From a virus: a stretch of 64,000 bases of DNA. The notes below the pieces were generated by a model that did not search any database, was not told the DNA's origin, and saw only the letters and a list, made by a program, of their open reading frames with translations. How positions within the stretch are numbered: the first letter of the stretch is position 1; every line of letters begins with the position of its first letter. Shown piece by piece: positions 5,401 through 49,421 of the stretch. The position numbers were made by a program, and so were the translations under genes. The DNA lies in the IMG/VR virus record IMGVR_UViG_3300035691_000003, positions 1-64,000 of that record. One strand, given 5' to 3'.

Positions 5401-8236
5401 CGTCAAAGAGCAGCGGGTCAAGGTGCGCAGCCAGACACGGCGCACGAAGGAGCAGTTGATTGCTGAGCGTTCGGCGCTGAAAAGCGAACTTTCAGCGTTG
5501 ATTGAAGCGCCTTCGGTGAAGGAGTTTTTACGTAATGAGAAAGGTGAGCTTGACCCCGAAAAGGCTGGGGAGCTGACACGTGTCCTGCGCGATCTTGCCC
5601 GCAACTACATCGAGGACGGAGTAACGAAAGCCGAAGAACTGGTGGATAGAATCCATGAGCATGTAAAGGATGTCAGCGACCTGACAAAGCGTGAAGTAAG
5701 CGATCTGATCTCCGGCTACGGCACAATACGTCGCGCAACCCAGAACCCGGTTGAGAGAAAACTGAATGAGATCAAGGCCATTCTTGCAGCGACTTCAGGC
5801 AGGGCTGACGTACTGGAAGAATCAATCCGCCCACTGCGTCGTGGACAGCAGCGCGAGAAACCTACCGAAGACCAACGCCGCGCGCTGCGGGAACTCAACG
5901 AGGCGATGCGTGAGCACGGCCCGGAACTGGCGCGCGAACCCTACGATCCGACAACCCGACAGGCAACTCCGCTCGACAAGGCAAAGACCACCACTCGAAA
6001 TCGCATCGAGCAACTCAACCGCTGGATCGCCGAAGGGAAACGTGAGACGCAGACCCGCACGGAAATTATTCCCGACGCAGAGCTTATTCGACTTCGCGCC
6101 GAGCGTGACGCTCTGGAGCAAACTGCGTCGCTCCTGGAAGATCCAAAGGCTGACGATCGCGCTATTGAGCAACGGGTGAAAGCGCTGGAAAAGTCACTGA
6201 CCGAGGTTCGTCAGCGGGTACAAAGCGGTCAGGTTGAGCCGAGACTGAAGACCGGCGCAAAGCAACTCTGGTCCGAAGAGATCGGGCGACTAACCAAGGA
6301 GAGGGAAGTGCTTAACGGCGTTCTCTCCGACATGCGTGCCGAGGCTAAACGTAAGGGGCGTCAGGCTACCCAGCCAGCTGAGGTCTACGGCCAGCGCATG
6401 TCATGGCAGGAGTTTGAGAAGGCGGCTCAGCGTGAGCTTAATCGACGCAAGGATCTGGACAAGCGGGCAATGGAGTACGAGCGCCGTATTCGTGAGCGGG
6501 ACTTTGCCGACAAACCAAAAGTCAAGCCGCAGTATACGCGAGAGACGATTGCGCGTACCAAGGAAGTTGATGCGCTAAAAGCCGAATACAACAAGCTGCG
6601 CTATCAGGCCACCCGCTCCTTCGGCGGCAAGCTCATCGACACCGGCGTCGGCGTTGGCAACATCCCCAAGACCCTGCTGAGCATGGCGGATGTTTCAGCA
6701 CTGCTTCGTCAGGGCGGCATCGGCTACGTGCAACACCCCGTTCTCTCCACCCGCGCCGCTCGCGACATGCTCACCGCCTTCACCAGCCACGGGTTCGCCA
6801 ACGTGGAAGAGGCCATCAAGTCCAACCCGAAATTCGACCTCGCCCGGCGCTCCGGCGTCGAGTTCACCGGCGTGGATCGCAACGACCCGCACCTGAACCG
6901 TCGCGAGGAGGGCTATCTCGGCTCCGGGGCGATTGACACACTCGCCAAGGGCCGCGCCAACCCGCTGCGTGCCATCAAAGCCGTCAAAGACTTCTCCGAA
7001 CGCACCTTCGTCTCCTTCCTCGACTCACAGCGCATGCGCATCTTCGAGCAACAAGCCCAGGCGCTGCGCGACATGGGTCTCACCGGCAAGGAGTTAGATA
7101 CAGCACTCAAGTCCCAGGCCAAATACATTAACATCATCACCGGACGCGGCTCGCTCGGCACTGAAGGCAACAAGTACGCCCCCGCGCTCAACCTCGCCAT
7201 GTTCTCTCCCCGGCTGGTGGCCTCCCGCTTCCAGTTTTTGAACAAGATGCTGAACCCGGTCGCGTGGGCCAGGATGCCCTCCGGCGCGCGTAAGCTCCAG
7301 ATGACCGACAACGTCAAATTCCTCGTCGGCACGGCGGCGGTGTTGGGACTGGCAAAAGCAGCGGGCGCAAACGTCAATCTCGACCCCGACGACGCGGACT
7401 TTCTGAAAATCAAAGTCGGCAACACTCGCTTCGACACCCTCACCGGTCTCCAGCAGCCCTTACGCTTCACCCTTCGCATGGCAAAGGCGATTCGCGGCGG
7501 CAAGACCTACAGCGGCGACCCCAAGGGCGACATTCTCGCCGACTTTGCGCGCTCCAAGGCATCCCCGGAAATCGGCCTTGGCTGGGACTTTTTCGCCGGT
7601 CAGAACCGCCTCAGCGGCAAGCGTTTCGAGCCATCCGACGTTGGCCGCAACCTCATCCCGCTGCCGCTGCAAGACTTCGCCGAATCCATCAAGGAGGACG
7701 GCGCACTGCGCGGCTCGGTCGAAGCGCTCCCCTCGCTCCTCGGCGTCGGCGTGCAGACCTACAAGGGCGCGGCGGAGAAGCCGACGACGGAGGCGGAGAA
7801 ACTGGCCCGGCGATTCCTTCGCAACAAACTGCCGGACGAAGCACGCGATCAGGAGCAAATCGACCTCGACACAAAGAAGTCGGAACTACGCGCTCGTGCG
7901 CGCCGAGGTGAGGACGTAACCAGTGATCTCGCGACACTCAAGGGCAAAATTACCGACCGCCAAGCCAAAGCCATCCTCGCCGCGCGTAATCGCACCCGGC
8001 TTCAGGAGGACGTCAACCGGCTGGGTATCAAGGACGCGCTCTTGGTCTACTCAGTGGCGAACCCGCAACAGCGGGCCGAGTTGCGTGACTTGCTCACCAA
8101 GAAAGCGCCACTAGCCGACGTGTTGCCACCCGACGAGCAGGCCAAGGTGCGCGCCAAACTGGTCGACTACGGTATCAGCGGCGGTCGCCCCGCCCGTCCA
8201 TTACGCCAATCCCGTCCGTCCCGAGCCGAGCGATGA
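2480..8236 (+). CDS. Large virion ejection protein with N-terminal SLT-type lytic transglycosylase (1918 aa)
   Basis: IESG catalytic Glu motif, SPKGAKGFGQVMP, DPDENVEAG; long helical/coiled-coil body; C-terminal DPDDADFLKIKVG segment resembling phage large polyvalent proteins. Confidence 0.8.
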   Translation: MPDNDLDAYLNPLTAPRSPRERVHSIASRIGLDPSIADDYLRLTRIESGQNINVRDSPKGAKGFGQVMPDRPGLSTRTIGNRRYNLRDPDENVEAGLRLFQAGGSDPVARRLEYFGGAGARRQYQRTGRIPNISDGNMTAAQYVRATGAQQLQSPTSDLDSYLDPVEQTPPVSSQKRVVQNPPASPKQSTTQSAPRTTPSYRQPFAPVSPETQAAIRAGIADAERPPIAPPPGRAAALLRQYGQTKGVENVVQQREAQTRAAVEQEYRARRGPYGSPTPTGALHLIANPIESLTGLFRSDEENINRETQERLKQQQVATEPEVESIRKEYGQMSAPVRSVVAPLARGGASLLSIAGGLANLGGMLPKGTLPPLDKLHDWAKKRAAIIETGASLPPLAEERGLSSLITGNAKLKEVERGIPEKVATGLADLGVGLGQIILLKKATNLPFNQLLALEAAAKSSDSPIDQQLGKAAEGYALGSALESNLSRGTNAALFGLPTAAQTGYEVSQGRMLPLDAAIQTGIQAGAGAVLTPSRRGRPSEVAQVELRPEPRVETSQRDTQDTGRQFRTLADVLDHERSLPKVEQDAFRDALAADPAVEKANAAWLAGADMSVLGEAHRRFAERYFNQKPDTAIERYLDGPPVQTQPPVETERAPVEPAAMAESLARPVQSVDRTVGEVAAPEAPARFFHRDYGEVIESPNQRGVSKGRVRVTAEDGTEHVIKRSAMTGAGNQRAVPIRPEPVAESAQAESAISPERKAQSAPVEIEKRSEPAAESSTTAVKNAAMASDRAARDLPELVAAEPRRAAEVHQRALDANTRDPRSVDRLVAQSLTGDKNLTDVETAQLRLRAQEIKNREGELLDELNSATDPQTIREKRTELDSLTEEFDQLSQATRKAGTEWGRAGVARQQAIDQDFSLVAMKARLKAAKRDVLTAAENARVEELERKLRAAEKRAEEAERQATQQESASAADKYVKEQRVKVRSQTRRTKEQLIAERSALKSELSALIEAPSVKEFLRNEKGELDPEKAGELTRVLRDLARNYIEDGVTKAEELVDRIHEHVKDVSDLTKREVSDLISGYGTIRRATQNPVERKLNEIKAILAATSGRADVLEESIRPLRRGQQREKPTEDQRRALRELNEAMREHGPELAREPYDPTTRQATPLDKAKTTTRNRIEQLNRWIAEGKRETQTRTEIIPDAELIRLRAERDALEQTASLLEDPKADDRAIEQRVKALEKSLTEVRQRVQSGQVEPRLKTGAKQLWSEEIGRLTKEREVLNGVLSDMRAEAKRKGRQATQPAEVYGQRMSWQEFEKAAQRELNRRKDLDKRAMEYERRIRERDFADKPKVKPQYTRETIARTKEVDALKAEYNKLRYQATRSFGGKLIDTGVGVGNIPKTLLSMADVSALLRQGGIGYVQHPVLSTRAARDMLTAFTSHGFANVEEAIKSNPKFDLARRSGVEFTGVDRNDPHLNRREEGYLGSGAIDTLAKGRANPLRAIKAVKDFSERTFVSFLDSQRMRIFEQQAQALRDMGLTGKELDTALKSQAKYINIITGRGSLGTEGNKYAPALNLAMFSPRLVASRFQFLNKMLNPVAWARMPSGARKLQMTDNVKFLVGTAAVLGLAKAAGANVNLDPDDADFLKIKVGNTRFDTLTGLQQPLRFTLRMAKAIRGGKTYSGDPKGDILADFARSKASPEIGLGWDFFAGQNRLSGKRFEPSDVGRNLIPLPLQDFAESIKEDGALRGSVEALPSLLGVGVQTYKGAAEKPTTEAEKLARRFLRNKLPDEARDQEQIDLDTKKSELRARARRGEDVTSDLATLKGKITDRQAKAILAARNRTRLQEDVNRLGIKDALLVYSVANPQQRAELRDLLTKKAPLADVLPPDEQAKVRAKLVDYGISGGRPARPLRQSRPSRAER

Positions 8237-10281
8237 GTCTCATCCCTGAACTAACCCCGGAGCTACAGGCGGAGTTCGGCGTCACCACCTTCGGTGAAGC
8301 GCTCCAGAAGATGCTGCCGCATCTCGGCAAGAAGTACCAGAAACAGGCGTGGCAGTTTGAGCAGGCTGTTCGTCAGCACTTCGCCCTCTCGCCTGATGAA
8401 ATCGAATCCCAAGGCGGCTGTGCCTGGGCCAAGAAGTTCTTCCCGCAATCCTTCACTCGCGACTTCACCAGCTACCAGTCCGACTTCTGGAAGTGGGGCT
8501 GGGACATCCAACCCGATGTTTACTATCGCCCGCGCGTGGAGTGCGAGCCGCGTGGGGTGGGTAAGTCAACGACGGCAGAAACCTGGCTGGTCAGCATCCT
8601 GGCCCGCAAGCGCCGCCGCACCGTCGGCTACATCTCCGGCACCGACGCCAAAGCCACCCAGCACTTCGGCGGCGTCAAACGCAAGTTGGAAAACGCCGAC
8701 CTGCTCAAAACCTATCCCCACCTCAAGCCGCAGGTGCAAAAGTATCGCAACGCCTTCAACTCCTGGTCACAGGATCGGCTCGTCACCGACGGGGGCCAGA
8801 CCATCATCCCCATCACCTTGCAAGGCTCCAATCGCGGCTTCAAGTCAGAAGATGACATCCGCTTCGACCTGCTCATCTTCGACGACATCGACTCGCTTGG
8901 TGAGAGCATCGACGTGATCATGAAGAACATCGAGCTAATCAAGTCGGAAATCATCCTCGCCGGTTACGCCAACACGCTCAGCGTCGTCTTCCAGAACCTC
9001 ATCCACCGCGATTCCATCGTCACGCAGATTATGGACCATCGGGCTGACGTGTTGAACGACCGCGACTTCCACGGCCCCTACCCGCTGATGAAGTGGTACG
9101 ACGCCGAACGGCTGGACCTCCCTGATGGGGGTAAGCGCTGGACCATCACGGCGGGAGAACCCTACGACCCGGCTATCTCCAAGGAATACGCGGAATCGAT
9201 CCTCAACCAAATCGGCAAAGACCTGTTCGACCGTGAGTGCCAGCAGGATGTCTACAAGGTCGCCGAGGACAAGGACTTTCGCGAGTGGGACGAGGTCTAT
9301 CACATCATCACCCAGTCGGAGATGGTGCGTGGGTTTGCGCAGGTGAAACTCCGCGACGAGAACGGGTTCTTCATCCCTTCCCGCTGGCATGTAGGCCGGG
9401 GATTTGATTTTGGTACGACGAGAGGACACCCATCAGCGATAGCCTATGTCACGCGACCCGATCAGACATGTCCCCTCGATGACTGCCACTTCGTCTTCGC
9501 TGAAGTTGTCGCACCAAAGTTTCCTTTTGATCCCTCACTGGCAAGTGAAGTGGTCAGCCCTGGTCGCGTGGCCCATGCGCTGAAAGTCACCGAGCGCAAC
9601 TTCCGCATCCACTCGTCGCAAATCGAGCAGTCGAAGATGTCGCACGAGGCGAGTGCTGCAAAAAATACCCTGATGCTCGACCTTCCCGAAGAACTCACCA
9701 CCTTCTTTAATAAGTGGAAGGCGGCGAAAGGCTCCGGCGTCCCGCAAATCCAGAACATGCTGGAAATCGACCGGACGAAGCCGCACCCCTTCCGCGTCTA
9801 CCCCGCTGGTCATAAACATGCCGGGATGCCGCTGATGGGCCGTCCGCGCCTCTACTTCGTAGTCGCCGACAATCAGGGCGAACTCTACTGCGACGGTGAC
9901 GGCAAGGTGCGCGTGCGCGGGGCGACTGACTCCGCCGGACTGGCCCGTTGTCGTTACGAGATGCCGCTCTACTCGCACCGCAACACCGGCAAGAAGAAGA
10001 TTGATGATGACTTCGTGGACGGGTTGCGCGGGCTGATGTCCACCTTTGGCGTTCACGCTGACGCACTCACCGAGCAGGAGGAAGTCGTCGCCGCGACCCC
10101 GGAGAAGTATCGCGCGGAGAACGTGTTTGGCGAGCACTACACGCAGGAGAAGGAGATGGCTTACAACTACGCCACCGCCGTTATCAAGCAGCGTCTGCAA
10201 ACCCCGCGTGTCATCACCTTTGATGAATTCAACCAACCTACCACGCGGGAAAATGATGAACTTGCCGAGTCGCTGTGGTAG
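8233..10281 (+). CDS. terL: Terminase large subunit
   Basis: Walker A PRGVGKST, Walker B LLIFDDID, FDRECQQ, RNase H-like GFDFG motif and late DDFVDG. Confidence 0.9.
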   Translation: MSLIPELTPELQAEFGVTTFGEALQKMLPHLGKKYQKQAWQFEQAVRQHFALSPDEIESQGGCAWAKKFFPQSFTRDFTSYQSDFWKWGWDIQPDVYYRPRVECEPRGVGKSTTAETWLVSILARKRRRTVGYISGTDAKATQHFGGVKRKLENADLLKTYPHLKPQVQKYRNAFNSWSQDRLVTDGGQTIIPITLQGSNRGFKSEDDIRFDLLIFDDIDSLGESIDVIMKNIELIKSEIILAGYANTLSVVFQNLIHRDSIVTQIMDHRADVLNDRDFHGPYPLMKWYDAERLDLPDGGKRWTITAGEPYDPAISKEYAESILNQIGKDLFDRECQQDVYKVAEDKDFREWDEVYHIITQSEMVRGFAQVKLRDENGFFIPSRWHVGRGFDFGTTRGHPSAIAYVTRPDQTCPLDDCHFVFAEVVAPKFPFDPSLASEVVSPGRVAHALKVTERNFRIHSSQIEQSKMSHEASAAKNTLMLDLPEELTTFFNKWKAAKGSGVPQIQNMLEIDRTKPHPFRVYPAGHKHAGMPLMGRPRLYFVVADNQGELYCDGDGKVRVRGATDSAGLARCRYEMPLYSHRNTGKKKIDDDFVDGLRGLMSTFGVHADALTEQEEVVAATPEKYRAENVFGEHYTQEKEMAYNYATAVIKQRLQTPRVITFDEFNQPTTRENDELAESLW

Positions 10282-11429: not shown

Positions 11430-11545
11430 TATCAATCCGGGTGGTTCGTTTTCGCCGACGACGCAAGCCGCTTGGGGGCAGGTGGGCCACTCGTTGCTTA
11501 GCCTGATGCCACTGTTTGCTCTAGCAAGTGTGAACGATAATTGAC

Positions 11546-11697
11546 ATTGAACGGTTTAGGGGCCGCGATTCGTGCCCCGAGTTACTTTGAGTATGCCGAT
11601 CTAACATAGAGTTTAGGAAACTCGTAAGGCCACTGGACTACGAATCCGATCTGTGGCAGGTAGGTGCCCAAGAACCCTATCACCAGAGCCGTTCAAT
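11546..11697 (+). ncRNA. Candidate multi-branched structured RNA
   Basis: 12-bp closing stem ATTGAACGGTTT/GAGCCGTTCAAT (2 G-U pairs valid only on +) enclosing four hairpins; no ORF in the track. Confidence 0.6.
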
Positions 11698-11707
11698 TTA
11701 ACTGATC

Positions 11708-40637: not shown

Positions 40638-41138
40638 ATGAATAGACGACAGTTCACATGGCGCGGGATTCTTACCTTCTTAGTCCTCGGATTCGCTGGC
40701 AGCGCTTTCAAGTGCGACTCCGATAAGGTATCAATCTACGTACTGACCATCACCAACTTTCTCAAACAGATTTCCTCTATCATGCCGCAGTGGGCGGCGA
40801 CAATTACCAAGATTCTGGCAGTCGCAACCGACTTCGATGCCGCCTACAAGCATGGCGACTTCTCCAGCGCCGACAACCTGTTCAACACGCTCGACGAGAA
40901 CATCCTAACGCTGACCAAAGACTTGGGCGTCAACCTCAGCGACCATGTGAAAATGCTGCTGGCGGTGATTGGGGCGACGGTGCAGACGGTGGCTGTGTTG
41001 CTGCATGAGCAGATTATGAAGCAACCGGCGTCGGCTATCGCAGCGGCCCGCGCGGCGAAGTCCAGCAACGCAGTGGAACGGTTGTCGGCCCCAGCGGCGG
41101 TCAATGCAACCTTTGAAACGGCTAAACTGAAGCCGTAA
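40638..41138 (+). CDS. Putative Tat-exported (lipo)protein
   Basis: AGGAGG RBS; MNRRQF twin-arginine motif, hydrophobic stretch, Cys at 26. Confidence 0.6.
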   Translation: MNRRQFTWRGILTFLVLGFAGSAFKCDSDKVSIYVLTITNFLKQISSIMPQWAATITKILAVATDFDAAYKHGDFSSADNLFNTLDENILTLTKDLGVNLSDHVKMLLAVIGATVQTVAVLLHEQIMKQPASAIAAARAAKSSNAVERLSAPAAVNATFETAKLKP

Positions 41139-41139
41139 G

Positions 41140-41269
41140 TTTCGGAACGTCTCGGTGGCTAGTAACGAGCACGATGATGAGACGGTGACATGGAAAGAAG
41201 GAAGGTACATTCGAGGCGTTCGCAACTGTTGAATCAAGCAGGTAGACCACGGCACGGGACGTTCCGAGA
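41140..41269 (+). ncRNA. Candidate stem-closed structured RNA
   Basis: 15-bp stem TTTCGGAACGTCTCG/CGGGACGTTCCGAGA with 2 G-U pairs on +; fills the intergenic gap. Confidence 0.55.
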
Positions 41270-41293
41270 TTAGCAGCACATGGAGCGGCTGTA

Positions 41294-41899
41294 ATGTTCG
41301 ACTGGTTGTGGAAGATGACCAAGACCAAAGATGAGAGACAGTTTGAAATCCTCGACCAGCGGCTAATCGACATTCAGGGCAGGTTGAAGAAACTGCGCGT
41401 GGAGATCGACCAGCAAGCCAATAGCAACCAAGGAAAGTTTGACAATCTTACAAAGTTAGTAGTGGCCGAGACAGAACAGATCCTTAAGGCCATTCAGGCA
41501 ATCCAACCGGCCCCGGTGCCGAATAAATCTCTGGAGGTAACATTCGTGTTTAAAGTAGCAAACGATCATCAGGACGAACCGTATTCCATCGCCATCGGCA
41601 GCGTGACGGACGCGGAAGGCGAGACGCTTCCCGACACCAGAGGACTGACCGTGGAAGTCACGTCAAGCGATGATACGGTTGTAAGCCCCGGCTTCGACTC
41701 GGCGACGAATTCCGGCATCGCCCACTTCGGTAAATCCGGCGTTGCGTCACTGAACGCAGTCGTGAAGAACGCCAAGGGTGACATTCTCGGCAGCGGCGCG
41801 GCGGATTTTACTGTGACCACCGGCGATCCCGCAGCGGTGAGCGATGTCAAGATCTCGTTTGGCGGACTGACTGAAGAAGCACCGCCAGTGGAGGGCTAA
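41294..41899 (+). CDS. Coiled-coil plus Ig-like domain protein
   Basis: N-terminal heptads; C-terminal VTSSDDTVV Ig-like motif. Confidence 0.7.
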   Translation: MFDWLWKMTKTKDERQFEILDQRLIDIQGRLKKLRVEIDQQANSNQGKFDNLTKLVVAETEQILKAIQAIQPAPVPNKSLEVTFVFKVANDHQDEPYSIAIGSVTDAEGETLPDTRGLTVEVTSSDDTVVSPGFDSATNSGIAHFGKSGVASLNAVVKNAKGDILGSGAADFTVTTGDPAAVSDVKISFGGLTEEAPPVEG

Positions 41900-41902
41900 C
41901 CA

Positions 41903-42076
41903 ATGCCACTCGCATACATCTTCTGGCTGCTCATCATCCTCTGGGCCATCTTTGGGTTGGGTTATCCCTTCGTTGTGGAGACGCCCAACCGGAGGATTAT
42001 CAGCGGCGGCAATCTGCTACTGTTCGTGCTCATCGTCCTGCTGGGTTGGCAGGTGTTTGGGAGTGCAGTGAAGTAG
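41903..42076 (+). CDS. Two-TM small membrane protein (holin candidate, 57 aa)
   Basis: Manual translation MPLAYIFWLLIILWAIFGLGYPFVVETPNRRIISGGNLLLFVLIVLLGWQVFGSAVK; GGAGG RBS. Confidence 0.65.
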   Translation: MPLAYIFWLLIILWAIFGLGYPFVVETPNRRIISGGNLLLFVLIVLLGWQVFGSAVK

Positions 42077-42100
42077 TCACACCAACAGGAGACATCGTGC

Positions 42101-42688
42101 TTGCCCGGAAACAGCCGACAGGGAATAGGCGTAGACGCAATGGGTGGGCCGGTAATCGACCCAACCAAGAACGTTCTCGACTTAACCAACGCGGCCAACA
42201 AGCGGCAAGACGACCTCCGCGAGATGTACAACCGCTTCATCGAAGCGTCGATTCGGCGGTTAGATGAAACGGTCAGACGGGTTGAGCAGATAGCGGACCT
42301 AAGAGCACAGCACGCGCACGATGTCAGCATGATCCATCAGGCCCATGACCGTGAAATTCACAAGATGGAGCAGGACAAACTGGCGGCATTTCGGGCCAGC
42401 GATGAGATGGCGAGGATCACCGAGGCGAATCGTAGTCTCGCGGCAATCCAGGTGGTTGAGCGAACATTGAACTCCACGGCAACCGCACTGGCAAGCCAGA
42501 ACGCCGAGAACAATGTGGAAGTTAATCGACGACTGGCAGCACTTGAGAAGTCCAGCTACGAAGGCGCAGGTAAGGGGACGGGAGCCAAGAATACCGTCAC
42601 CTACGTGGTGCTGGCAGTCGGCATGGTAATGTCGCTAATAACAATCGGCTCGGTAATAGTAGCAATCGCTTTCGCAATCAGACATTAG
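42101..42688 (+). CDS. Coiled-coil protein with C-terminal TM
   Basis: Helical body and hydrophobic C-terminus. Confidence 0.75.
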   Translation: MPGNSRQGIGVDAMGGPVIDPTKNVLDLTNAANKRQDDLREMYNRFIEASIRRLDETVRRVEQIADLRAQHAHDVSMIHQAHDREIHKMEQDKLAAFRASDEMARITEANRSLAAIQVVERTLNSTATALASQNAENNVEVNRRLAALEKSSYEGAGKGTGAKNTVTYVVLAVGMVMSLITIGSVIVAIAFAIRH

Positions 42689-42708
42689 AACAAGGAGCAA
42701 TCGCCCAG

Positions 42709-42876
42709 ATGAGTAGCAAACATGAACAAGACCACCCAGCACCGCAAGGACTGCCGGATGAGACTCCACCGACAACCAAGCCGGTTGGACCACCGGATAA
42801 ACCCGGCCCACTCGGCGACGTTCCCATCCCGCCTGAGCCGCCCAAGCCGCCTGACCCTCCCGGTGGAGGCAACTGA
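42709..42876 (+). CDS. Proline-rich peptide (55 aa)
   Basis: AAGGAG RBS; MSSKHEQDHPAPQGLPDETPPTTKPVGPPDKPGPLGDVPIPPEPPKPPDPPGGGN. Confidence 0.55.
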   Translation: MSSKHEQDHPAPQGLPDETPPTTKPVGPPDKPGPLGDVPIPPEPPKPPDPPGGGN

Positions 42877-42881
42877 ATCAA

Positions 42882-43349
42882 ATGAGCGCCCGTCCGCTGC
42901 CGCAGGTAGATGACACGATCTACACCGTCTCACTATGGAAAGACGAACTCGACTCAACTTACAAGTGGTGGCAGAAGGCGTTCTATCGGTTCCTCTACCT
43001 GCCCTTCAATGAGTTCTCGCTGAAGGTCATCAAGATACCCAAGGCGACAGAGATTGAACGCGAGGGCGATAAGGTCCGCTTTCGTATCTGGGAAATCATC
43101 GGCCACTACGGTTCACCCGACGAGGCGGACATCACCTGCACGACTCCTCGGCACTGTTACAAAGACTATCCCTACGGGCGGCGCTTCCCTGACATCAGCG
43201 GACAGATAGGCCATGGCCCGGTCTTCCCTCGCGCTAAAGACCCTCGTAAGCGTATCCAGCCAATCATGGACACGACGTTTCTACCGCGCCGTGAAGTAAG
43301 CCAAATGAGAAATGAAATCGCCCGGCTGAATCAGGTACTGGACCAATGA
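42882..43349 (+). CDS. Hypothetical protein
   Basis: 155 aa ORF in operon. Confidence 0.7.
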   Translation: MSARPLPQVDDTIYTVSLWKDELDSTYKWWQKAFYRFLYLPFNEFSLKVIKIPKATEIEREGDKVRFRIWEIIGHYGSPDEADITCTTPRHCYKDYPYGRRFPDISGQIGHGPVFPRAKDPRKRIQPIMDTTFLPRREVSQMRNEIARLNQVLDQ

Positions 43350-43355
43350 TCGACC

Positions 43356-43832
43356 ATGCAAGAGAACCCGACAGTTCCTCATGTTCTAATACTGGTCTCG
43401 AACTTCATTACAGCAATCCTTTCAATTGGCGGAACCCTAACCGCTCTATGGTTTAAGGGGAGACGCGAGCCTGCCGAGGTAAGGCGCATAGACGCCGAGA
43501 CCCATAACCTGCAAGTCACCACAGAAATTGCCCCGATAGGAATCAGTCTCGAATTACTGCGAGAACTCCAGGCAGTCAGAAAGAAAGCTGAGGACCGTGC
43601 TGAGCAGTCGCTATTGAAGGAAGACCAGATGCGCGGGCAGATCCTCTTCTGGCGCAACAAGGCTGAAGAGTTGGATGGACAGTTGATTGAGTCTAAGGAA
43701 GAGGCCGCTCAGCTACAGACCCGCTATAACCTGAAAAAAGCCGAACTGGAAAAGGCGATGGGCCTACTGCAAATAAAGCACGTCAGCTACGGTGACGCGG
43801 ACCAGCCGAAAGATCGCAGCGGAGAAAAATAG
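43356..43832 (+). CDS. N-terminal TM plus coiled-coil protein (lysis-module type)
   Basis: Hydrophobic residues about 9-32 followed by heptads. Confidence 0.7.
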   Translation: MQENPTVPHVLILVSNFITAILSIGGTLTALWFKGRREPAEVRRIDAETHNLQVTTEIAPIGISLELLRELQAVRKKAEDRAEQSLLKEDQMRGQILFWRNKAEELDGQLIESKEEAAQLQTRYNLKKAELEKAMGLLQIKHVSYGDADQPKDRSGEK

Positions 43833-44054
43833 AGGCAGCACCCGCCTCCCACAGCCAGCACCACCTCGTCGTAAAAGGAGAACAATCTCGGAAACTTAGT
43901 CGTTCCGTTGGCTGGAAGTGTAGCACAGGTGGAGCGGGCGAGCAGATAGAAAGACGACGCCAGTCACCCGACGCCGCCTCCCATTCCAAAGTGGTCTAGG
44001 TCTGTAGATTTTTGCCTGGTTGTCTCCTCCTTTCAATTGATGGATTACGAACAC

Positions 44055-44426
44055 TGGTTGATTGCGTCGTGGATTCAAACCACGTTTGGGACTTCAGTAG
44101 TCAGGCACAGTCCCACCGTCAATAGGACAGATGCTGCTATCCACGCGAGCATGGTCGCCTGGGGTCCAACTCGGCCCGTTGCTTGCCGATTTTCACAGCA
44201 GTTCTCCCCACCTCAAGAAGTCTCTGGTCTCGCCGAATGGGCTTAGCGTGCTCCAGTAGGATTACTCCACTGGTCCACGGTACTAACGAGCCGCCGTGAA
44301 AGGTTGTACTAAGTGCTTAACACCGGAGGATCGTTACCTACCTCCCAGCCTTTCCCTCGTGCTCTCCCGCTGCACTCCTGAGTTCCTGTCACTTCCGAGC
44401 GCTTTCGTCAGAGCGCCACCGCAATC
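44055..44426 (-). ncRNA. 372-nt tRNA-like-ended large structured RNA
   Basis: GATTGCG/CGCAATC acceptor-like stem, D-like arm, T-arm CGTGG-TTTGAAT-CCACG, 3' ACCA, TATAAT 5 nt upstream. Confidence 0.75.
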
Positions 44427-44431
44427 AAAGA

Positions 44432-44437
44432 ATTATA
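44432..44437 (-). promoter_or_regulatory. -10 box for the 372-nt RNA
   Basis: Exact TATAAT; no good -35 at 17 bp. Confidence 0.5.
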
Positions 44438-44531
44438 ACGTGGACCACTCCCTCCGGCTTTCACGGAGCAGCGCCAAGGATTCCGATGACAAGGCACGCG
44501 CTTATCGCGCCAGTGGCCCACGAGATTCAGC

Positions 44532-44783
44532 CTAGTTCACAATCGGGCAACCATGGGCTTCCATGCACCCCTTGTAAATACCGGCGGCGTGCGTCACGCA
44601 TCCCTTGAACTGGTCTGGGGTTATATCGTCTCCGTAGACTATTACACAGCTGAGCATGTCGGCGTCGGCAAGGCCCTCACATGCGGCGTTAGCCTGATCG
44701 CAGGGAATAAACGCAGCCGATCCAGTGGGCGTGACTAGCAGCCCTATGGTGAGCAATGCCAGTATGATTAGTTTTCGTCTCAT
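44532..44783 (-). CDS. Small secreted Cys-rich protein
   Basis: AGGAG RBS; signal peptide MRRKLIILALLTIGLLVTPTGSAA; six Cys. Confidence 0.75.
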   Translation of the reverse strand: MRRKLIILALLTIGLLVTPTGSAAFIPCDQANAACEGLADADMLSCVIVYGDDITPDQFKGCVTHAAGIYKGCMEAHGCPIVN

Positions 44784-44821
44784 TAGTCTCTCCTGTCTAA
44801 AGGGTTAATGGTCAGGCAGTC

Positions 44822-45824
44822 TCTCAACCCACCAGTTCCGCCGTCACCGCACTCTACATTGTCACGTCTCCCGAATCGGCGACAGCCACCTCTACGCGGT
44901 GGGTTGAGAAGGGGGATTGCGCGGCCCCCGCAGGCGGTGGGTTCGACACGTTACGACCACCTCTCCCCGGTCTGTCCTCTCGTGCCAGAGTAAGCCGCGC
45001 AAACTTGATTCAATTGTCAATTCAACCTTGGACCACCGCCGCCACCTTTTCAGACGGCTTGGGGTTCATCGCCAAAGATGCCGTAACCGAGTGGCCCAAG
45101 GGTCGGTCGAGTAGGATGATTTCAAACCGCAAGTCCGAAGACCTACGATGAAGCAGGTGTTACCACTCTGCTCCATCCTACTCGACTGCGATTGCGCGGG
45201 GCCGGGCTTGATACCGGCTACGGCATGTCGAGTGGCGTTCTGCCGTGTTGTCACGGCTCTTAGCTAGCATCTTCGGAACCTGCCATGCCTTCCTATCCGA
45301 ATACTCAGTAGCGTTTCCTTCAACGCCGTCCGCGCAAATTCAGTTGTCAATGGCCGTTTGCAGTGGCTCAGGTCGCTCGGCGTCCTCGTTCTCGTGCCTA
45401 CCTCGCAGTTGACTCTACTGCTTCAGGCTTGTTTTTCCGAGATAAGGCAGATGGAGACGAGAGTCTTTACAGCCTCGCTCCACAGTCGTTTACCGTGGCT
45501 TTTACCGCCCTCAATGACCACTGCAAACATCTGATGCGGGACTTGTCTGGAGCGCCTTCGTTCTCCCCGCTGGTGTTACCAGCCAGCGAGTCCCGCGCAA
45601 CTATGCCGCGACTTGTATTAACGGCGCTCGCGGCCAACGACGAGCGGTTCAACGTAGCCGCCACCGTCGGGTTCTCCGTTCCCGCTATCTGGTCATCCTG
45701 TCAATTCAGGCGGTTGACGGGAGCACTTTAATTACATCGTCCTCCCCAGATCACTGGTGCCCCACCCATCGTTCAGTGTCCGCTTGCGCGGTGAATGCTC
45801 AGTCTATTGACGAGCGAGTGGGGC
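44822..45824 (-). ncRNA. Tandem array of stem-closed structured RNAs, some tRNA-like
   Basis: Successive inverted-repeat-bounded units: 44822-44909, 44917-45002, 45026-45101, 45106-45186, 45192-45337, 45356-45528, 45536-45596, 45759-45824; most diagnostic G-U pairs favour - strand. Confidence 0.7.
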
Positions 45825-45829
45825 GTGAT

Positions 45830-45982
45830 TCAAATATCCATCGCGCACTCGTGTGTACACTCAGCGCAACAGTCGCAAAAGTCATCGCTGTCATTGTCGT
45901 TTATCTCAACCGCGTAAGGACAGCTATGGGATTCGTCCGTTGCTTCATTTTGGCAGCCCGCTCGACCTGTGCATTTAGCCAT
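45830..45982 (-). CDS. Small acidic Cys-rich protein (50 aa)
   Basis: Manual translation MAKCTGRAGCQNEATDESHSCPYAVEINDNDSDDFCDCCAECTHECAMDI. Confidence 0.65.
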   Translation of the reverse strand: MAKCTGRAGCQNEATDESHSCPYAVEINDNDSDDFCDCCAECTHECAMDI

Positions 45983-45988
45983 GGTAGC

Positions 45989-46348
45989 TCACCTTACCTC
46001 CGCACCCTGCACCGCCCGCCGCACCCCACGCCGCACCTCCCAGTCGTCCCGCTCCCTCGTCCCTGGCAATCCCGGCACAGTGAGTCGCTCAGCGTCGGGT
46101 AGAGTGCCCAGTGCCACCACCAGCGCCGCCAGTAGTCGGGCATTCTGCCGTTCAGTAAACAGGGCACTGATTAACGAACCTTGCCGTGCTTCGCGATACA
46201 GCAGCAGCGCTTGTCGCAGTCCAATCTTCACCGGCTCACATAAGTCGCAGAAGACGAGAGCGACGAGGTGGGTGGATGGTAGGGTTAGTGGTCGAGGTTG
46301 CGGCCTCTGGGCCAGCGCGACCAGTAGAGCGAGTTCAGCGACTATCAT
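45989..46348 (-). CDS. Hypothetical protein
   Basis: GGAGG upstream of internal Met MIVAEL. Confidence 0.5.
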   Translation of the reverse strand: MIVAELALLVALAQRPQPRPLTLPSTHLVALVFCDLCEPVKIGLRQALLLYREARQGSLISALFTERQNARLLAALVVALGTLPDAERLTVPGLPGTRERDDWEVRRGVRRAVQGAEVR

Positions 46349-46873
46349 CGTCGTCGTCCTCCCGCTTCCCATTCAACTCATCAATCGCTAGTGCTAACTC
46401 TCGCTCATGCTCCGGCATATTCCCCGGCCAGTTGGGCTGCACCTCAGCACGCCAGCGACGGGCGGCGGTGAGCAGGCGGGTGGTGGCGTCAGTGGTTAAC
46501 TCGGGCATCTGGCATCTCCTTTCGCTTTCACCTGTCGCAGCCGCTTACGATCACCGATGAACATCCCCTGTGCGGCAATCTCGCTGAACGCTACAGCTTT
46601 ACGGTCTGGCTCCAACCGCTCCAACAATTCCTCCCGGCGAAACTCACAGAAGAGGCAATAGTCGTCGTAGTGGATGGTGCCACAACAGCGGCATTCACTC
46701 ATCGGTCGCCTCCCCCACTGTACACAACGGCCCTGGTTCTCCATCAGGATCGCCGTCCCAGCACAGCCAGCAGCGACGTGGATCGTGGTCCTCTGTCTTG
46801 GTCGCATTGCAGTGACGACAAGTTACAGGCTCGCACTCATACGGGTGCATGTCCTCGGCGGTACAGGCGAAGC

Positions 46874-47155
46874 TCATATCAGCACCTCCGGTTCCGCGCA
46901 AAGAAAGCAGGCGACATAACTGCCGTCGGGAAGCGGTAGGAACCCGTCTTCACAGCAGTGTTCACTATCATCAAATAGCCAGCCATCGCCACGGCAGGTA
47001 GAACATCCATCTCCATCAGCCTGTTCCCCGGTCCCGCTACAGTCGCGACAAACTACTTCGGCAGGCAGCAGGAATTCAAACGGCCAGTCAGCGGGAAAGT
47101 CGAACGATTGCGGGTAAGGGTCGCGAATGTCAGTGTCGTCGATGGCGGGAATCAT
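46874..47155 (-). CDS. DnaJ-type Zn-finger small protein
   Basis: CRDCSGTG and CSTCRGDG motifs. Confidence 0.7.
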   Translation of the reverse strand: MIPAIDDTDIRDPYPQSFDFPADWPFEFLLPAEVVCRDCSGTGEQADGDGCSTCRGDGWLFDDSEHCCEDGFLPLPDGSYVACFLCAEPEVLI

Positions 47156-47306
47156 TGGGTGGCTCCTGTCTCGTCTTCATTGCAAAGTAAATTACCCTGA
47201 ATATGGTCAGCGATTGCCCGCAGACGCTCCACGCCGTCACCAAACTCCTGAGCGCTGGCCGGGTCGGCCATTTCCTGCACCTGTCGCAATAGTTCGTGGG
47301 GTTCCA

Positions 47307-47579
47307 TCAGTCGCCTCCTTCCGGCAGCGCTTGCAGAGGATTCGCGCCAACTATTAGATCCACTTCCTCTTTGCGAAGCACCGACGCACAGGAAGCCAGT
47401 GAAGTAGCAATCAGCAACGACAGGCCCGCAGTGTACCGAGCAGCGTCTTGCAGTGCCTCGATTTCAGACTTCCCCTGGCCGATGATATGGAAATCCTCGA
47501 ACCACACGTCCCAGGGATCGTCAGCGCCCTTCGTCTCGGTTACGTAGATTGTACCCACGTCGCTCTTGTATTTGCTCAT
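47307..47579 (-). CDS. Hypothetical protein (HicB-like N-terminal motif)
   Basis: GGAGG RBS; GQGKSEIEALQDA. Confidence 0.55.
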   Translation of the reverse strand: MSKYKSDVGTIYVTETKGADDPWDVWFEDFHIIGQGKSEIEALQDAARYTAGLSLLIATSLASCASVLRKEEVDLIVGANPLQALPEGGD

Positions 47580-47580
47580 C

Positions 47581-48081
47581 TCAACCTCCCGTGCTCGCAG
47601 CCTGTGTCGGAGCGACGAACTCATGATAGTTCACATACCCCAGTGTCACATCGTGAATCCCGTCGTTCTCCAGTCCCTTGCACACCTTGCTGTCAATCTC
47701 AAAGGCACACTTGTCACCGTTGCTCATCAGCATCTGTAATCGCCCACTAACATCGGTGGAGAACTGGTGCTGGCTATCCCCGTCACCGTGGTCCCCGTCG
47801 TCTGGGTCGGTGCTGCCACAGATGGCGCACATGGGTTTGCGCTGCTGGGCCAGATTCTTGTTAAGTGTCGCTGCCAGCCCGGTGGCACGCGCCGATCTGT
47901 TGCCAGTGGCGCGGGTGCGCTTCTTGACGCCCTTGCCGGTTCCCTTTGTCGGCTGCAACGACTCGACCAGGAGATCGCGCTCACTGTCGGACAGCCCGCG
48001 CAAGGTGGCCAGCAACGCGGATTCGTCGTCGCTGAACTGACGTTGTAGACTGTAGACTTTAAGCACGTTTCGCAGATTCAC
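47581..48081 (-). CDS. Hypothetical protein with Cys/His motifs
   Basis: AAGGAG RBS, 166 aa. Confidence 0.65.
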   Translation of the reverse strand: MNLRNVLKVYSLQRQFSDDESALLATLRGLSDSERDLLVESLQPTKGTGKGVKKRTRATGNRSARATGLAATLNKNLAQQRKPMCAICGSTDPDDGDHGDGDSQHQFSTDVSGRLQMLMSNGDKCAFEIDSKVCKGLENDGIHDVTLGYVNYHEFVAPTQAASTGG

Positions 48082-48296
48082 AATAATTGCTCCTTCCTTT
48101 GCTTGTTAGCGGCCCATTGTAAGAACGTCTCAAACTTCCAGTCAGTCAGGCTCTCAGGGCCAAATGTTACTGAATGACCGCGCGTTTCCATCTCAGCTAG
48201 AAACTCTTTCATCAGCGCGCGGAGGTAGTCTAAGTCGGCGGCAATACCCACTCGTGATGGAAACTGGCGCAGATTGGATTGGGCAGGGGTGGTCAT
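48078..48296 (-). CDS. Hypothetical protein
   Basis: GAGG RBS; GTGA coupling to next gene. Confidence 0.55.
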   Translation of the reverse strand: MTTPAQSNLRQFPSRVGIAADLDYLRALMKEFLAEMETRGHSVTFGPESLTDWKFETFLQWAANKQRKEQLL

Positions 48297-48417
48297 AGAT
48301 CGTCGTCCTCGCAGCACTTACAGCAGGTAGCGCACTTGCGACAGTCGGCGCATTGATAAACTTCGCAGTCACAGCCGTAAGGTGATCCCTCTGACAGGCC
48401 ACAGCAGTAGCACTCGT

Positions 48418-48924
48418 TCATCCCATTCTCCGCTCATTCAAATCCGGCCCTGCTCGCCGAAGGTATTCGCAGGCTGTCATCAGGCGTTGTAGGTCATCTC
48501 CTAACATCCCCAACGCTCTATTGCAGGTGTCGCAAAGCAGCCCGCGAACATACCCCGTCTCATGGTCGTGGTCTACGACAAGGCGAGACTTAGATGCCTG
48601 CTTCTCCGGTAACTGCCCACAGGTCGCGCAACGTCCGTTTTGCTGCTTCAGAAGAACAAAGTAATCCTCGACGGTTAATCCGTATTCCTTTAGATAATTC
48701 CGGAATCGCCACAAGCGCCGTTGGGTCAATGTTTGCTCGTCAGTATATCTTCGCCGCTCAGCGCAGCGCTGACATAGACCATCTTTAGTGAACCGCGCTC
48801 GATCAGGACAACAAGATGCTCGTGGCAGAAATGGCTCTCGGTCTTTTACGTAACAGCCACTACATAGGCCCCGTGCCTTTAGTCGTCGTTCGGGATGACA
48901 GGTTGCTGCTCTCATTGATCGCAA
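48418..48924 (-). CDS. Endonuclease VII domain protein
   Basis: YGLT...Q.GRCATC...LVVDHDHETGYVRGLLCDTCNRALG. Confidence 0.9.
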   Translation of the reverse strand: MRSMRAATCHPERRLKARGLCSGCYVKDREPFLPRASCCPDRARFTKDGLCQRCAERRRYTDEQTLTQRRLWRFRNYLKEYGLTVEDYFVLLKQQNGRCATCGQLPEKQASKSRLVVDHDHETGYVRGLLCDTCNRALGMLGDDLQRLMTACEYLRRAGPDLNERRMG

Positions 48925-49421
48925 CCTTTTCCGGTCTGCCCGTAGTCAGCAGGAGACGTAAAATCCTTCCAATGAACCCAACGATCTTTGCAGTGAAAGC
49001 CCCAGTCGCGCGTTACCCGGCCCGTGACTACCAGTGTCCAGCATGGTAACGAGCCTCCACCCAGCAGCTTTGACAGTACGACCCGATGCGCGTGTCTGGC
49101 CCTGCGAAAAGCAATAGACGGAGCGCGACGAAACAGGAGGTCTTGGTCCACGGCATCCCCGACAATCTCGCGATACTCCCCTTTGAGCATCACCGATACA
49201 AACCACCACGGATGATCGTGCAGCGCTCGGTCCTCATCGTCGTGCAGGAACTTGTGCAGATAGACATTTAGCCACGGGTTGCGCGGAATGACGTACCAGC
49301 GCAGGAGGTAACGGTCGCCGATGATGAAGTGAGGCTTGAGCGACCACCAGCCGCGCGCCCACTGCACCACCGAGGCTCGCAAGCTGAATCCACTACCGCC
49401 GCTTCTAGTTCCATAAGCCAT
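48912..49421 (-). CDS. Conserved phage cupin-like protein
   Basis: YLLRW...LHKF..DD.DR.LHDHPW...HRV...WTLVVTG...WGF. Confidence 0.75.
   Translation of the reverse strand: MAYGTRSGGSGFSLRASVVQWARGWWSLKPHFIIGDRYLLRWYVIPRNPWLNVYLHKFLHDDEDRALHDHPWWFVSVMLKGEYREIVGDAVDQDLLFRRAPSIAFRRARHAHRVVLSKLLGGGSLPCWTLVVTGRVTRDWGFHCKDRWVHWKDFTSPADYGQTGKGCDQ

Follow-up and report, generated by a model that had tools for sequence, protein, structure and literature searches.

The C4 RNAs of phages P1 and P7 and the CI RNA of P4 are small immunity RNAs that host tRNA-processing enzymes, RNase P among them, cut from longer transcripts and that act antisense to phage mRNAs. Phage T4 encodes two stable RNAs, RNAC and RNAD, with unknown roles (PMC3014915, PMC9697503). 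Allo-tRNAs, which have acceptor stems of 8-9 bp, were described by Mukai et al. 2017 (PMC5389517), together with polycistrons of irregular tRNA-like RNAs in soil metatranscriptomes. The locus presented here lies in IMG/VR virus record IMGVR_UViG_3300035691_000003, from an uncultured soil phage for which cluster look-ups named no host. The record has 74,840 bp and is rated as complete by CheckV; the window is the whole stretch analysed, bases 1-64000 of this record (64,000 nucleotides). The window very probably contains an array of structured non-coding RNAs on its minus strand. A stretch of 1.8 kb, running from 45824 to 44055, would be the untranslated tail of a leftward (minus-strand) operon, ending at a minus-strand terminator and encoding about ten structured RNA modules, each independent of the others, along with a single gene for a small secreted protein. 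On balance, the favored interpretation is that the array is the tail of this operon and that stable RNAs mimicking tRNAs are cut from the operon end. The features of the array are as follows, in the leftward direction.

45759..45824, minus strand: unit 8, 66 nt, closed by GCCCCAC(UC)/(GG)GUGGGGC, with two inner hairpins.
45536..45600, minus strand: unit 7, a three-way junction of 61-65 nt that starts UUGCGCGGGACU.
45355..45529, minus strand: unit 6, a 175-nt multi-branched RNA with a closing stem of 12-13 bp (perfect arms 45356/45528).
45188..45341 (core 45337-45192), minus strand: unit 5, a member of a tRNA-like scaffold family (132 bits with the family model R1).
45106..45186, minus strand: unit 4, an 81-nt three-way junction with a perfect 13-bp closing stem.
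45026..45101, minus strand: unit 3, 76 nt, with a closing stem that includes GGGCCAC/GUGGUCC-A (a G3.U70-type pair, then A).
45006..45021, minus strand: leader motif AUUGACAAUUGAAUCA, ahead of unit 2 (a copy of the direct repeat family D1, which has 81% identity).
44917..45002, minus strand: unit 2, 86 nt, closed by UUGCGCGGC/GCCGCGCAA with 9-bp perfect arms.
44822..44909, minus strand: unit 1, 88 nt, with a perfect 12-bp closing stem.
44532..44783, minus strand: gene for an 83-amino-acid Cys-rich protein with a signal peptide and an AGGAG ribosome-binding site, embedded in the array.
44439..44522, minus strand: unit 0, 84 nt, cloverleaf-like, with an 11-bp closing stem including GGGCCACU/AGUGGUCC-A.
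44055..44426, minus strand: 372-nt RNA, preceded by TATAAT, read directly from the sequence.
43952..43990, minus strand: leftward terminator, a 9-bp stem GGCGGCGUC/GGCGUCGUC followed by UUUCU, the stem read by eye.

The initial annotation described eight inverted repeats between 44822 and 45824. All of these are present. The perfect arms measure 13 bp in the pair 45106/45186, 12 bp in 44822/44909, 11 bp in 45356/45528, and 9 bp in 44917/45002, and units 1 to 7 are spaced 4-23 nt apart, as annotated. Every module is sealed by its own terminal helix of 7-13 bp. On the minus strand of 44800-45600 there are six closed units with stems of at least 11 bp, while 200 dinucleotide shuffles of this region contain a mean of 0.29 such units and a maximum of 2, making these stems about 20 times commoner in the array than in shuffled sequence. 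Across the window their background is 0.8 per kb. The 11 bp threshold was adopted since closed units of at least 9 bp have a background of 7.7 per kb and are therefore uninformative. When folded against shuffled controls, units 1 to 8 have minus-strand z-scores of -4.9, -2.3, -3.0, -8.7, -2.6, -3.6, -3.5, and -4.7, and the minus strand gives the better fold in 8 of the 9 units from 0 to 8. This bears out the annotated strand preference; the exception is unit 7, the one in which an imperfect pair had been noted as favoring the plus strand.

Two parts of the original description hold only for some of the region. The tiling of approximately 1 kb is found for the units themselves and not for the 146 nt between units 7 and 8 (45605-45750), where there is no significant structure (z -0.18). 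Likewise, the array has its upper end at 45824 as described, but does not have its lower end at 44822, as modules run on down to 44055. The open reading frames (ORFs) overlapping the region do not have the pattern of low GC at second codon positions and high GC at third codon positions (GC2-low/GC3-high) that is seen in the genes of this phage. Their translations are Arg/Ser/Pro-rich nonsense, in keeping with the annotation of the region as having no convincing ORF. The expected lack of canonical matches is also seen, with no tRNAs found by ARAGORN and nothing at the gathering score in Rfam, where only junk is returned at E<=10. In the place of a canonical anticodon arm, which had been reported absent, the predicted folds have a tetraloop, a 17-nt loop, or multi-hairpin cargo. 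The promoter and terminator scan identified no convincing sigma-70 promoter or terminator inside the array, and blastn of the array against the INPHARED phages gave no match.

Homologs and covariation, on which the initial annotation had proposed that the array be judged, are found for unit 5, with 13 loci, and no homolog was detected for units 1, 3, 4, 6, 7, and 8. The scaffold family began with a BLAST match to the 3' end of unit 5 in L011, a phage with neighboring proteins that are about 40% identical. Further members came from pattern scans of IMG/VR and metagenomes in which both hairpins were required to pair; in the metagenome scan 3 of the 120 matches listed passed, most of the others being chance. 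The 13 distinct members are unit 5 and 12 phage or metagenome loci, none of which has an Rfam match. The 5' side of unit 5 is UU-GCGCGG, 2 nt, and a D-like hairpin of 5-6 bp with the loop GAAGGAA. This is followed by about 90 nt of variable cargo, made up of hairpins, then a 5-bp T-like hairpin with the loop UAUCAAGC, 1 nt, and CCGCGC-AA. Across the family the terminal helix U-GCGCGG...CCGCGCA is invariant in all 13 members, the D-like hairpin (5 bp, loop GAAGGA(N)) lies 1-2 nt past the 5' acceptor strand, and the T-like hairpin (5 bp, loop U-R-U-C-R-A-R-Y) lies 0-1 nt before the 3' acceptor strand. The T-like loops resemble the T loop of a tRNA and, judging from these loop sequences, the GG of the D-like loop could pair with the UC of the T-like loop, as in the elbow of a tRNA. 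The cargo is wholly different between members, and the minimum-energy folds retain the chassis.

In the model-based alignment of the 13 members, 98.3% of cells pair and 9 of the 18 pairs change on both sides; the observed covariation values were reached by 0 of 500 shuffles, and sliding the partners reduces pairing to 29-57%. All five pairs of the D-like helix change on both sides, with 98.5% of cells pairing, as do three of the five pairs of the T-like helix, with 100% of cells pairing. The acceptor helix was imposed by the search pattern for most of the members. Five loci were found using a 3'-only pattern, and since all five have U-GCGCGG on their 5' side as well as the GAAGGA loop, these two elements are seen as truly invariant. 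Within the window, the R1 model finds unit 5 only. Units 2 and 7 share the 5' strand UUGCGCGG and do not belong to the family, unit 2 having the scaffold terminal helix but other loops and unit 7 closing with a different 3' strand. The R1 model found no member in five related genomes (G001-G005, three close and two at about 40% identity). None among the at least 119 matches listed in the bacterial-genome pattern scan passed the hairpin checks, which gives a weak hint that the family may be phage-borne.

Two members have surroundings that are recorded here as observations in their own right. In a 74-kb IMG/VR contig (L029, 8405-8655) the scaffold RNA abuts a canonical tRNA-Ala(TGC) gene on the opposite strand, an adjacency that may be a prophage-host boundary, and a T-arm-like segment, GAGTTCAAATCC, is present within the cargo of this member. 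In L162, a distant phage, the scaffold RNA is directly before a large ORF, by eye a putative terminase large subunit.

A tRNA-like chassis can be recognized by eye in four modules, these being unit 5, unit 0, the 372-nt RNA, and, less clearly, unit 2. The layout consists of an acceptor-like stem, usually with a U just before the 5' G, a D-like hairpin 1-2 nt further on, and a T-like hairpin that abuts the 3' strand, with variable cargo of 15 to 300 nt replacing the anticodon arm. The outline of an acceptor next to a 5-bp T stem is present in unit 5, unit 0, and the 372-nt RNA, with 1-3 nt separating the stems and an 8-nt T loop in unit 5. The minimum free energy (MFE) structure of unit 0 is a four-way junction with three hairpins, the last being CUCCG-UGAAAGC-CGGAG (z -2.82 minus, -1.71 plus). 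Unit 0 and unit 3 (z -3.04 minus, -1.55 plus) have in common the 7-bp stem GGGCCAC/GUGGUCC-A. Alanine tRNAs follow a G3.U70/A73 identity rule, and the closing stems of both units carry this pattern.

The 372-nt RNA has GAUUGCG, GU, and a 6-bp hairpin on its 5' side, a middle of about 300 nt, and on its 3' side a near-canonical T arm, CGUGG-UUUGAAU-CCACG, followed by A and CGCAAUC-AACCA. A homolog of about 260 nt is present in another phage contig. Its first 39 nt are 97% identical and its last 69 nt, including the CCA end, are 91% identical, while the middle is different. With the ends kept and the middle swapped, this homology repeats the pattern of conserved ends and variable cargo. The RNA is similar to tmRNA in its size, paired 5' and 3' ends, T arm, and terminal CCA. 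It differs in that its acceptor, GAUUGCG/CGCAAUC, has U3-A70 rather than G3.U70, and in having a true 6-bp hairpin after the acceptor strand. It was not called as tmRNA by ARAGORN and has no Rfam match, and neither a tag reading frame nor pseudoknots were identified in it.

Of the remaining modules, unit 4 has the lowest z-score, with a minus-strand MFE of -45.3 against a shuffle mean of -20.1 (z -8.65). It contains two hairpins, the first capped by GUAA and the other by UUCG, and a UUGAAAUC linker; its closing-stem pattern has 0 matches in IMG/VR. Unit 8 has a minus-strand MFE of -31.8 (z -4.66; plus strand z -2.78), unit 1 has z-scores of -4.92 minus and -2.50 plus, and unit 6 has z-scores of -3.55 minus and -3.08 plus. 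Unit 2 (z -2.25 minus, -1.03 plus) is composed of a short hairpin with the loop GGCACG and a long hairpin with a loop that includes UGUCGAAC. The first hairpin of unit 7 is capped by a GUAA tetraloop, and the sequence GGTAAC is present at 45575-45580 on the minus strand; there are 21 GGTAAC sites in the window, with 3 of these within the array on the minus strand. The leader motif AUUGACAAUUGAAUCA recurs ahead of unit 5 (45336-45351) and, in a weaker form, ahead of unit 8 (45826-45841). The scaffold-family members of other phages are not preceded by a conserved copy of it. Copies of the 8-mer CCGCGCAA or its complement number 17 in the window, against 4.8 expected, and 6 of them are inside a 900-nt stretch of the array. 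The annotated sharing of the loop 10-mer TGGTAACACC by two units is real, and in the folds it forms a GUAA tetraloop in both, but it is at chance level. Its surrounding 12-of-13 match was also estimated to be at chance level and is not regarded as a meaningful shared motif.

Several further candidates were rejected. Relaxed ARAGORN searches (lower thresholds and the intron, tmRNA, and metazoan-mitochondrial modes) gave scattered low-score calls on both strands that are noise. A weak Rfam match to Mu-gpT-DE at 44781-44817 has 18 bits against a gathering score of 49, and weak matches to mascRNA, inside a coding region, and to ylbH were dismissed. A home-made acceptor/D/T descriptor was too permissive, with hundreds of matches in the window.

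One RNA sequencing run, compared with 41000-49000, matched this stretch in two places only. It is a soil metatranscriptome from a study other than that of the likely source sample, a rhizosphere metagenome, and its share of query words was 0.10, from which no habitat was drawn. A 195-nt contig (mean word depth 4.4) is identical to 44830-45024, covering the spacer after unit 3, unit 2, and nearly all of unit 1. Because this one RNA-library contig bridges both units, it fits with units 2 and 1 being co-transcribed. The other match is partial, 37 nt at 44371-44407 in the 5' part of the 372-nt RNA, after which that contig continues differently. The 195-nt contig is a hint, not proof, of expression and of an unprocessed span across two units.

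Relatives were identified through a search with the AAA_24 protein, which gave both close and distant ones, and an alignment of these located ten IMG/VR loci; single-protein searches with the 127-amino-acid and 1003-amino-acid neighbors gave no IMG/VR locus. The three close relatives, with neighboring proteins 88-94% identical, do not have the array and have protein genes or unstructured spacers at the junction. At the junction of the relative L003 there are a second small secreted protein and some 300 nt of spacer without structure, and in L004 it is filled by genes for 345-amino-acid and 165-amino-acid proteins. IMG/VR 3300049063_000065 and 3300049235_000005 are among the relatives without the array. 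BLAST and model searches of whole related genomes, five at a time and with the three close ones included, recovered nothing beyond the small protein gene and the element of L011. Rather than core phage machinery, the array is an accessory island; as the closest relatives are without it, it is seen as a fast-turnover one. The initial annotation placed the array where a phage tRNA cluster would normally sit. This is not borne out, since no tRNAs were found in the relatives.

A few features of the junctions in relatives were noted alongside. The extra gene of L003 (16053-16323, plus strand), positioned where the phage studied here has its RNAs, encodes a secreted Cys-rich, paralog-like protein with no family match. 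A conserved protein of about 165-170 amino acids (MWQLSHRADPEA...) is encoded in L004 (18560-19057, plus strand) and L013 (6853-6341, minus strand), being at the junction in the array-less L004 and immediately upstream of the scaffold RNA in L013. A non-coding stretch, GCGGCATGxCTTxATTG...GCGGGAAGCAGGxGGA, is conserved behind the last leftward gene of L003 (16895-16960, plus strand) and L013 (6340-6270, minus strand), with folding no better than shuffles (z +0.4 and -0.1).

The acceptor helix, T arm, elbow, U/G junction, and CCA are the elements of tRNAs that are read by RNase P and the CCA-adding enzymes. In the array there is an acceptor-like helix beside a T-like hairpin, a D-loop GG facing a T-loop UC, a U/G junction, and, on the long RNA, a CCA. 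By analogy with tRNAs, these features suggest that the tRNA-like members are probably released and stabilized by host tRNA-processing enzymes. Host RNase P on the 5' side, a 3' nuclease, and the CCA-adding enzyme would cut the transcript into stable small RNAs, which is how T4 RNAC and RNAD are matured. Such mature RNAs may, speculatively, mimic tRNAs and occupy host proteins that recognize the acceptor and elbow shape or, alternatively, the chassis may only stabilize and deliver its cargo. A decoy function is a tentative candidate, and rather unlikely; it is retained because presence and absence among close relatives is typical of host-interaction or counter-defense cargo. It is similarly doubtful, if conceivable, that the family is a natural 'tRNA scaffold' platform, in which the invariant chassis (U-GCGCGG, GAAGGA loop, URUCRARY loop, CCGCGCA-A) would feed interchangeable cargo into host tRNA maturation and perhaps charging. 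The phage would then possess a battery of mimics with differing acceptor identities, including the alanine-like G3.U70/A73 stem used twice, that titrates tRNA-directed defense nucleases or tRNA-binding host enzymes. No antisense target was found in the phage: outside the array, its genome has no complementary stretch of at least 16 nt, and those of 13-15 nt are about as numerous as expected.

Several observations weigh against the favored interpretation. Unit 7 folds better on the plus strand (z -4.96 versus -3.47). For the six units that have no detected homolog, the structures are thermodynamic predictions. No unit scores as a tRNA in ARAGORN or Infernal, and 'tRNA-like' refers to layout and loop motifs read by eye. 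The acceptor stem of the scaffold family never varies and is mostly fixed by the search pattern, leaving its pairing without covariation support. The 372-nt RNA is the only one to encode CCA, and it does so with an additional A. Among the 46 different phage ORFs scanned against Pfam there was no gene for an RNA-handling enzyme. The RNA evidence is one contig from one run, for which DNA carry-over is possible in principle, and contigs give neither strand nor ends. Lastly, the solitary scaffold RNA of other phages is often located just upstream of an ORF, where a cis-acting role fits equally.

Such a cis-acting role, in punctuation or stability, is the main rival, although it is itself unlikely. 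The modules would be processing, stability, or insulation elements of polycistronic mRNAs rather than RNAs acting in trans. The tRNA-like shapes would recruit RNase P/Z to separate messages, with the stable helices shielding neighboring mRNAs from exonucleases and blocking read-through at the convergent junction. The single, intergenic scaffold members 24-27 nt upstream of an ORF start in L011, L028, L162, and L166 are consistent with this, as are the position of the array at the convergence of a rightward late operon and a leftward operon and the similar closed module between the terminase and portal genes. However, ten modules with one small gene among them exceed the needs of punctuation, and the relatives handle the same junction without any. 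In addition, the 372-nt RNA has its own TATAAT and CCA end, and the conserved loop sequences imply recognition beyond a helix.

Phage tRNA clusters are often gained and lost, and several units keep acceptor-like, T-like, or cloverleaf-like features, as would be seen if the units were functionless pseudogenes of a former tRNA array. Decay should weaken helices, yet the closing stems are perfect at 9-13 bp with z-scores to -8.7, and the features that set unit 5 apart from a tRNA (6-nt D loop, 8-nt T loop, cargo) have been maintained in distant phages, with compensatory changes. With no unit reaching E<=10 against the Rfam tRNA model and no tRNAs in the relatives, a decayed cluster is improbable. 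Least probable of all, and to a degree that makes it hard to credit, is an element acting as DNA, with the hairpins forming a replication origin, a recombination or packaging signal, cruciforms, or single-strand hairpins. Perfect inverted repeats do also pair in DNA, and strand-switch junctions are a common place for replication origins. However, G.U pairs favor the minus strand in 8 of the 9 units, homologs keep their helices through G.U intermediates on one strand, and an RNA-library contig matches the region. There are also no iterons and no AT-rich stretch (GC 55-56%), and the relatives do not have the region. Minus-strand RNAs cut from the end of a leftward operon are preferred over each of these explanations.

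The array is the downstream end of a block of minus-strand genes that runs from 64000 down to 44532, just before this converges with the plus-strand block. The minus-strand block encodes a Dda-like helicase, a PD-(D/E)XK nuclease, an AAA_24 ATPase, and endonuclease VII. The large terminase is at 8233-10281, with plus-strand structural genes from there to about 43832. Most of the phage proteins have no PHROG or Pfam family match, and this is also true of the 83-amino-acid protein embedded in the array, which has a homolog in L003 that is 68% identical. The terminator motif is present after the homologous gene in L003 as well. In the phage studied here 3 of the 9 pairs of the terminator stem are G.U, giving full pairing only on the minus strand; the terminator scan also places a site here, but as a 7-pair stem at 43969-43952. 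Inside the window as well as outside it, ARAGORN found 0 tRNA or tmRNA genes in this genome, and there are no Rfam matches at the gathering score.

Other features of the genome were seen in passing. A 50-amino-acid Cys-rich protein without an obvious leader or a family match is encoded at 45830-45982 (minus strand), flanking the RNA island. Another stem-closed multi-branched RNA, with a 12-bp closing stem and a z-score of -2.8, is located at 11544-11699 (plus strand) between the large terminase and the next structural gene. Upstream of the terminase, a 1918-amino-acid ORF (2480-8236, plus strand) has a weak, sub-threshold match to SLT (lytic transglycosylase) near its N-terminus and may be an ejected virion protein. 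A GIY-YIG/HTH homing-endonuclease-like gene is present at 68737-69282 of the genome (L012 4737-5282, plus strand), approximately 770 nt upstream of the small terminase gene.

The description of the locus as an undescribed system was too strong, as T4 RNAC and RNAD and the soil polycistrons of irregular tRNA-like RNAs are precedents. The YrlA Y RNAs bound by Ro60/Rsr (Chen et al. 2014, PMC4201824) are likewise modular small RNAs, with one module that mimics tRNA, and are sometimes phage-encoded and arrayed. In YrlA, however, Ro binds the terminal helix and the tRNA-like part lies inside the molecule, whereas the termini of the array units are acceptor-like. YrlA has no Rfam match here, and there is no Ro60/Rsr domain in the 46 ORFs scanned against Pfam. 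The C4 and CI RNAs resemble the array in being small phage RNAs from longer transcripts and differ in acting antisense on phage mRNAs, the array having no above-chance complementarity to the rest of the genome. The allo-tRNAs and irregular tRNA-like polycistrons (PMC5389517) are, like the array, soil-derived, polycistronic, and tRNA-shaped, with over-long acceptor stems and suspected non-translational roles. Their fold is still a cloverleaf with an anticodon arm, and aminoacylation is possible for some of them, while the array units have no anticodon arm and are missed by tRNA finders.

In T4, RNAC is species 1 (139 nt) and RNAD is species 2 (119 nt). Like the array, these are phage-encoded, non-coding, and in a row of tRNA-sized genes, and the fold of rnaC sets a canonical T arm against the 3' end, with a long insert where an anticodon region would be. 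The two T4 RNAs come after eight real tRNAs, whereas here there are about ten modules and no tRNA gene, and unit 5 has an 8-nt T loop and a GAAGGA D-like loop. The R1 model has no match in the T4 tRNA region; the array and rnaC/rnaD share only a design, not similarity in sequence or to the model. In the fifty years since RNAC and RNAD became known, no function has been assigned to them. The locus suggests that behind them stands a widespread class of tRNA-shaped RNAs encoded by phages, seen here in an unusually clean form that has about ten modules, no real tRNAs, and presence or absence varying among close relatives. The scaffold family, with its invariant recognition-like elements, is a defined and testable object, and phages with and without the array form natural pairs in which to look for a part in host takeover or counter-defense. 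Should the chassis indeed carry arbitrary cargo into the tRNA pathway, it would be a natural counterpart of the engineered tRNA scaffolds used for recombinant RNA expression. Set against the known systems, the locus is new in its tRNA-free setting, in how large the array is, and in the UGCGCGG scaffold family with its covariation support.

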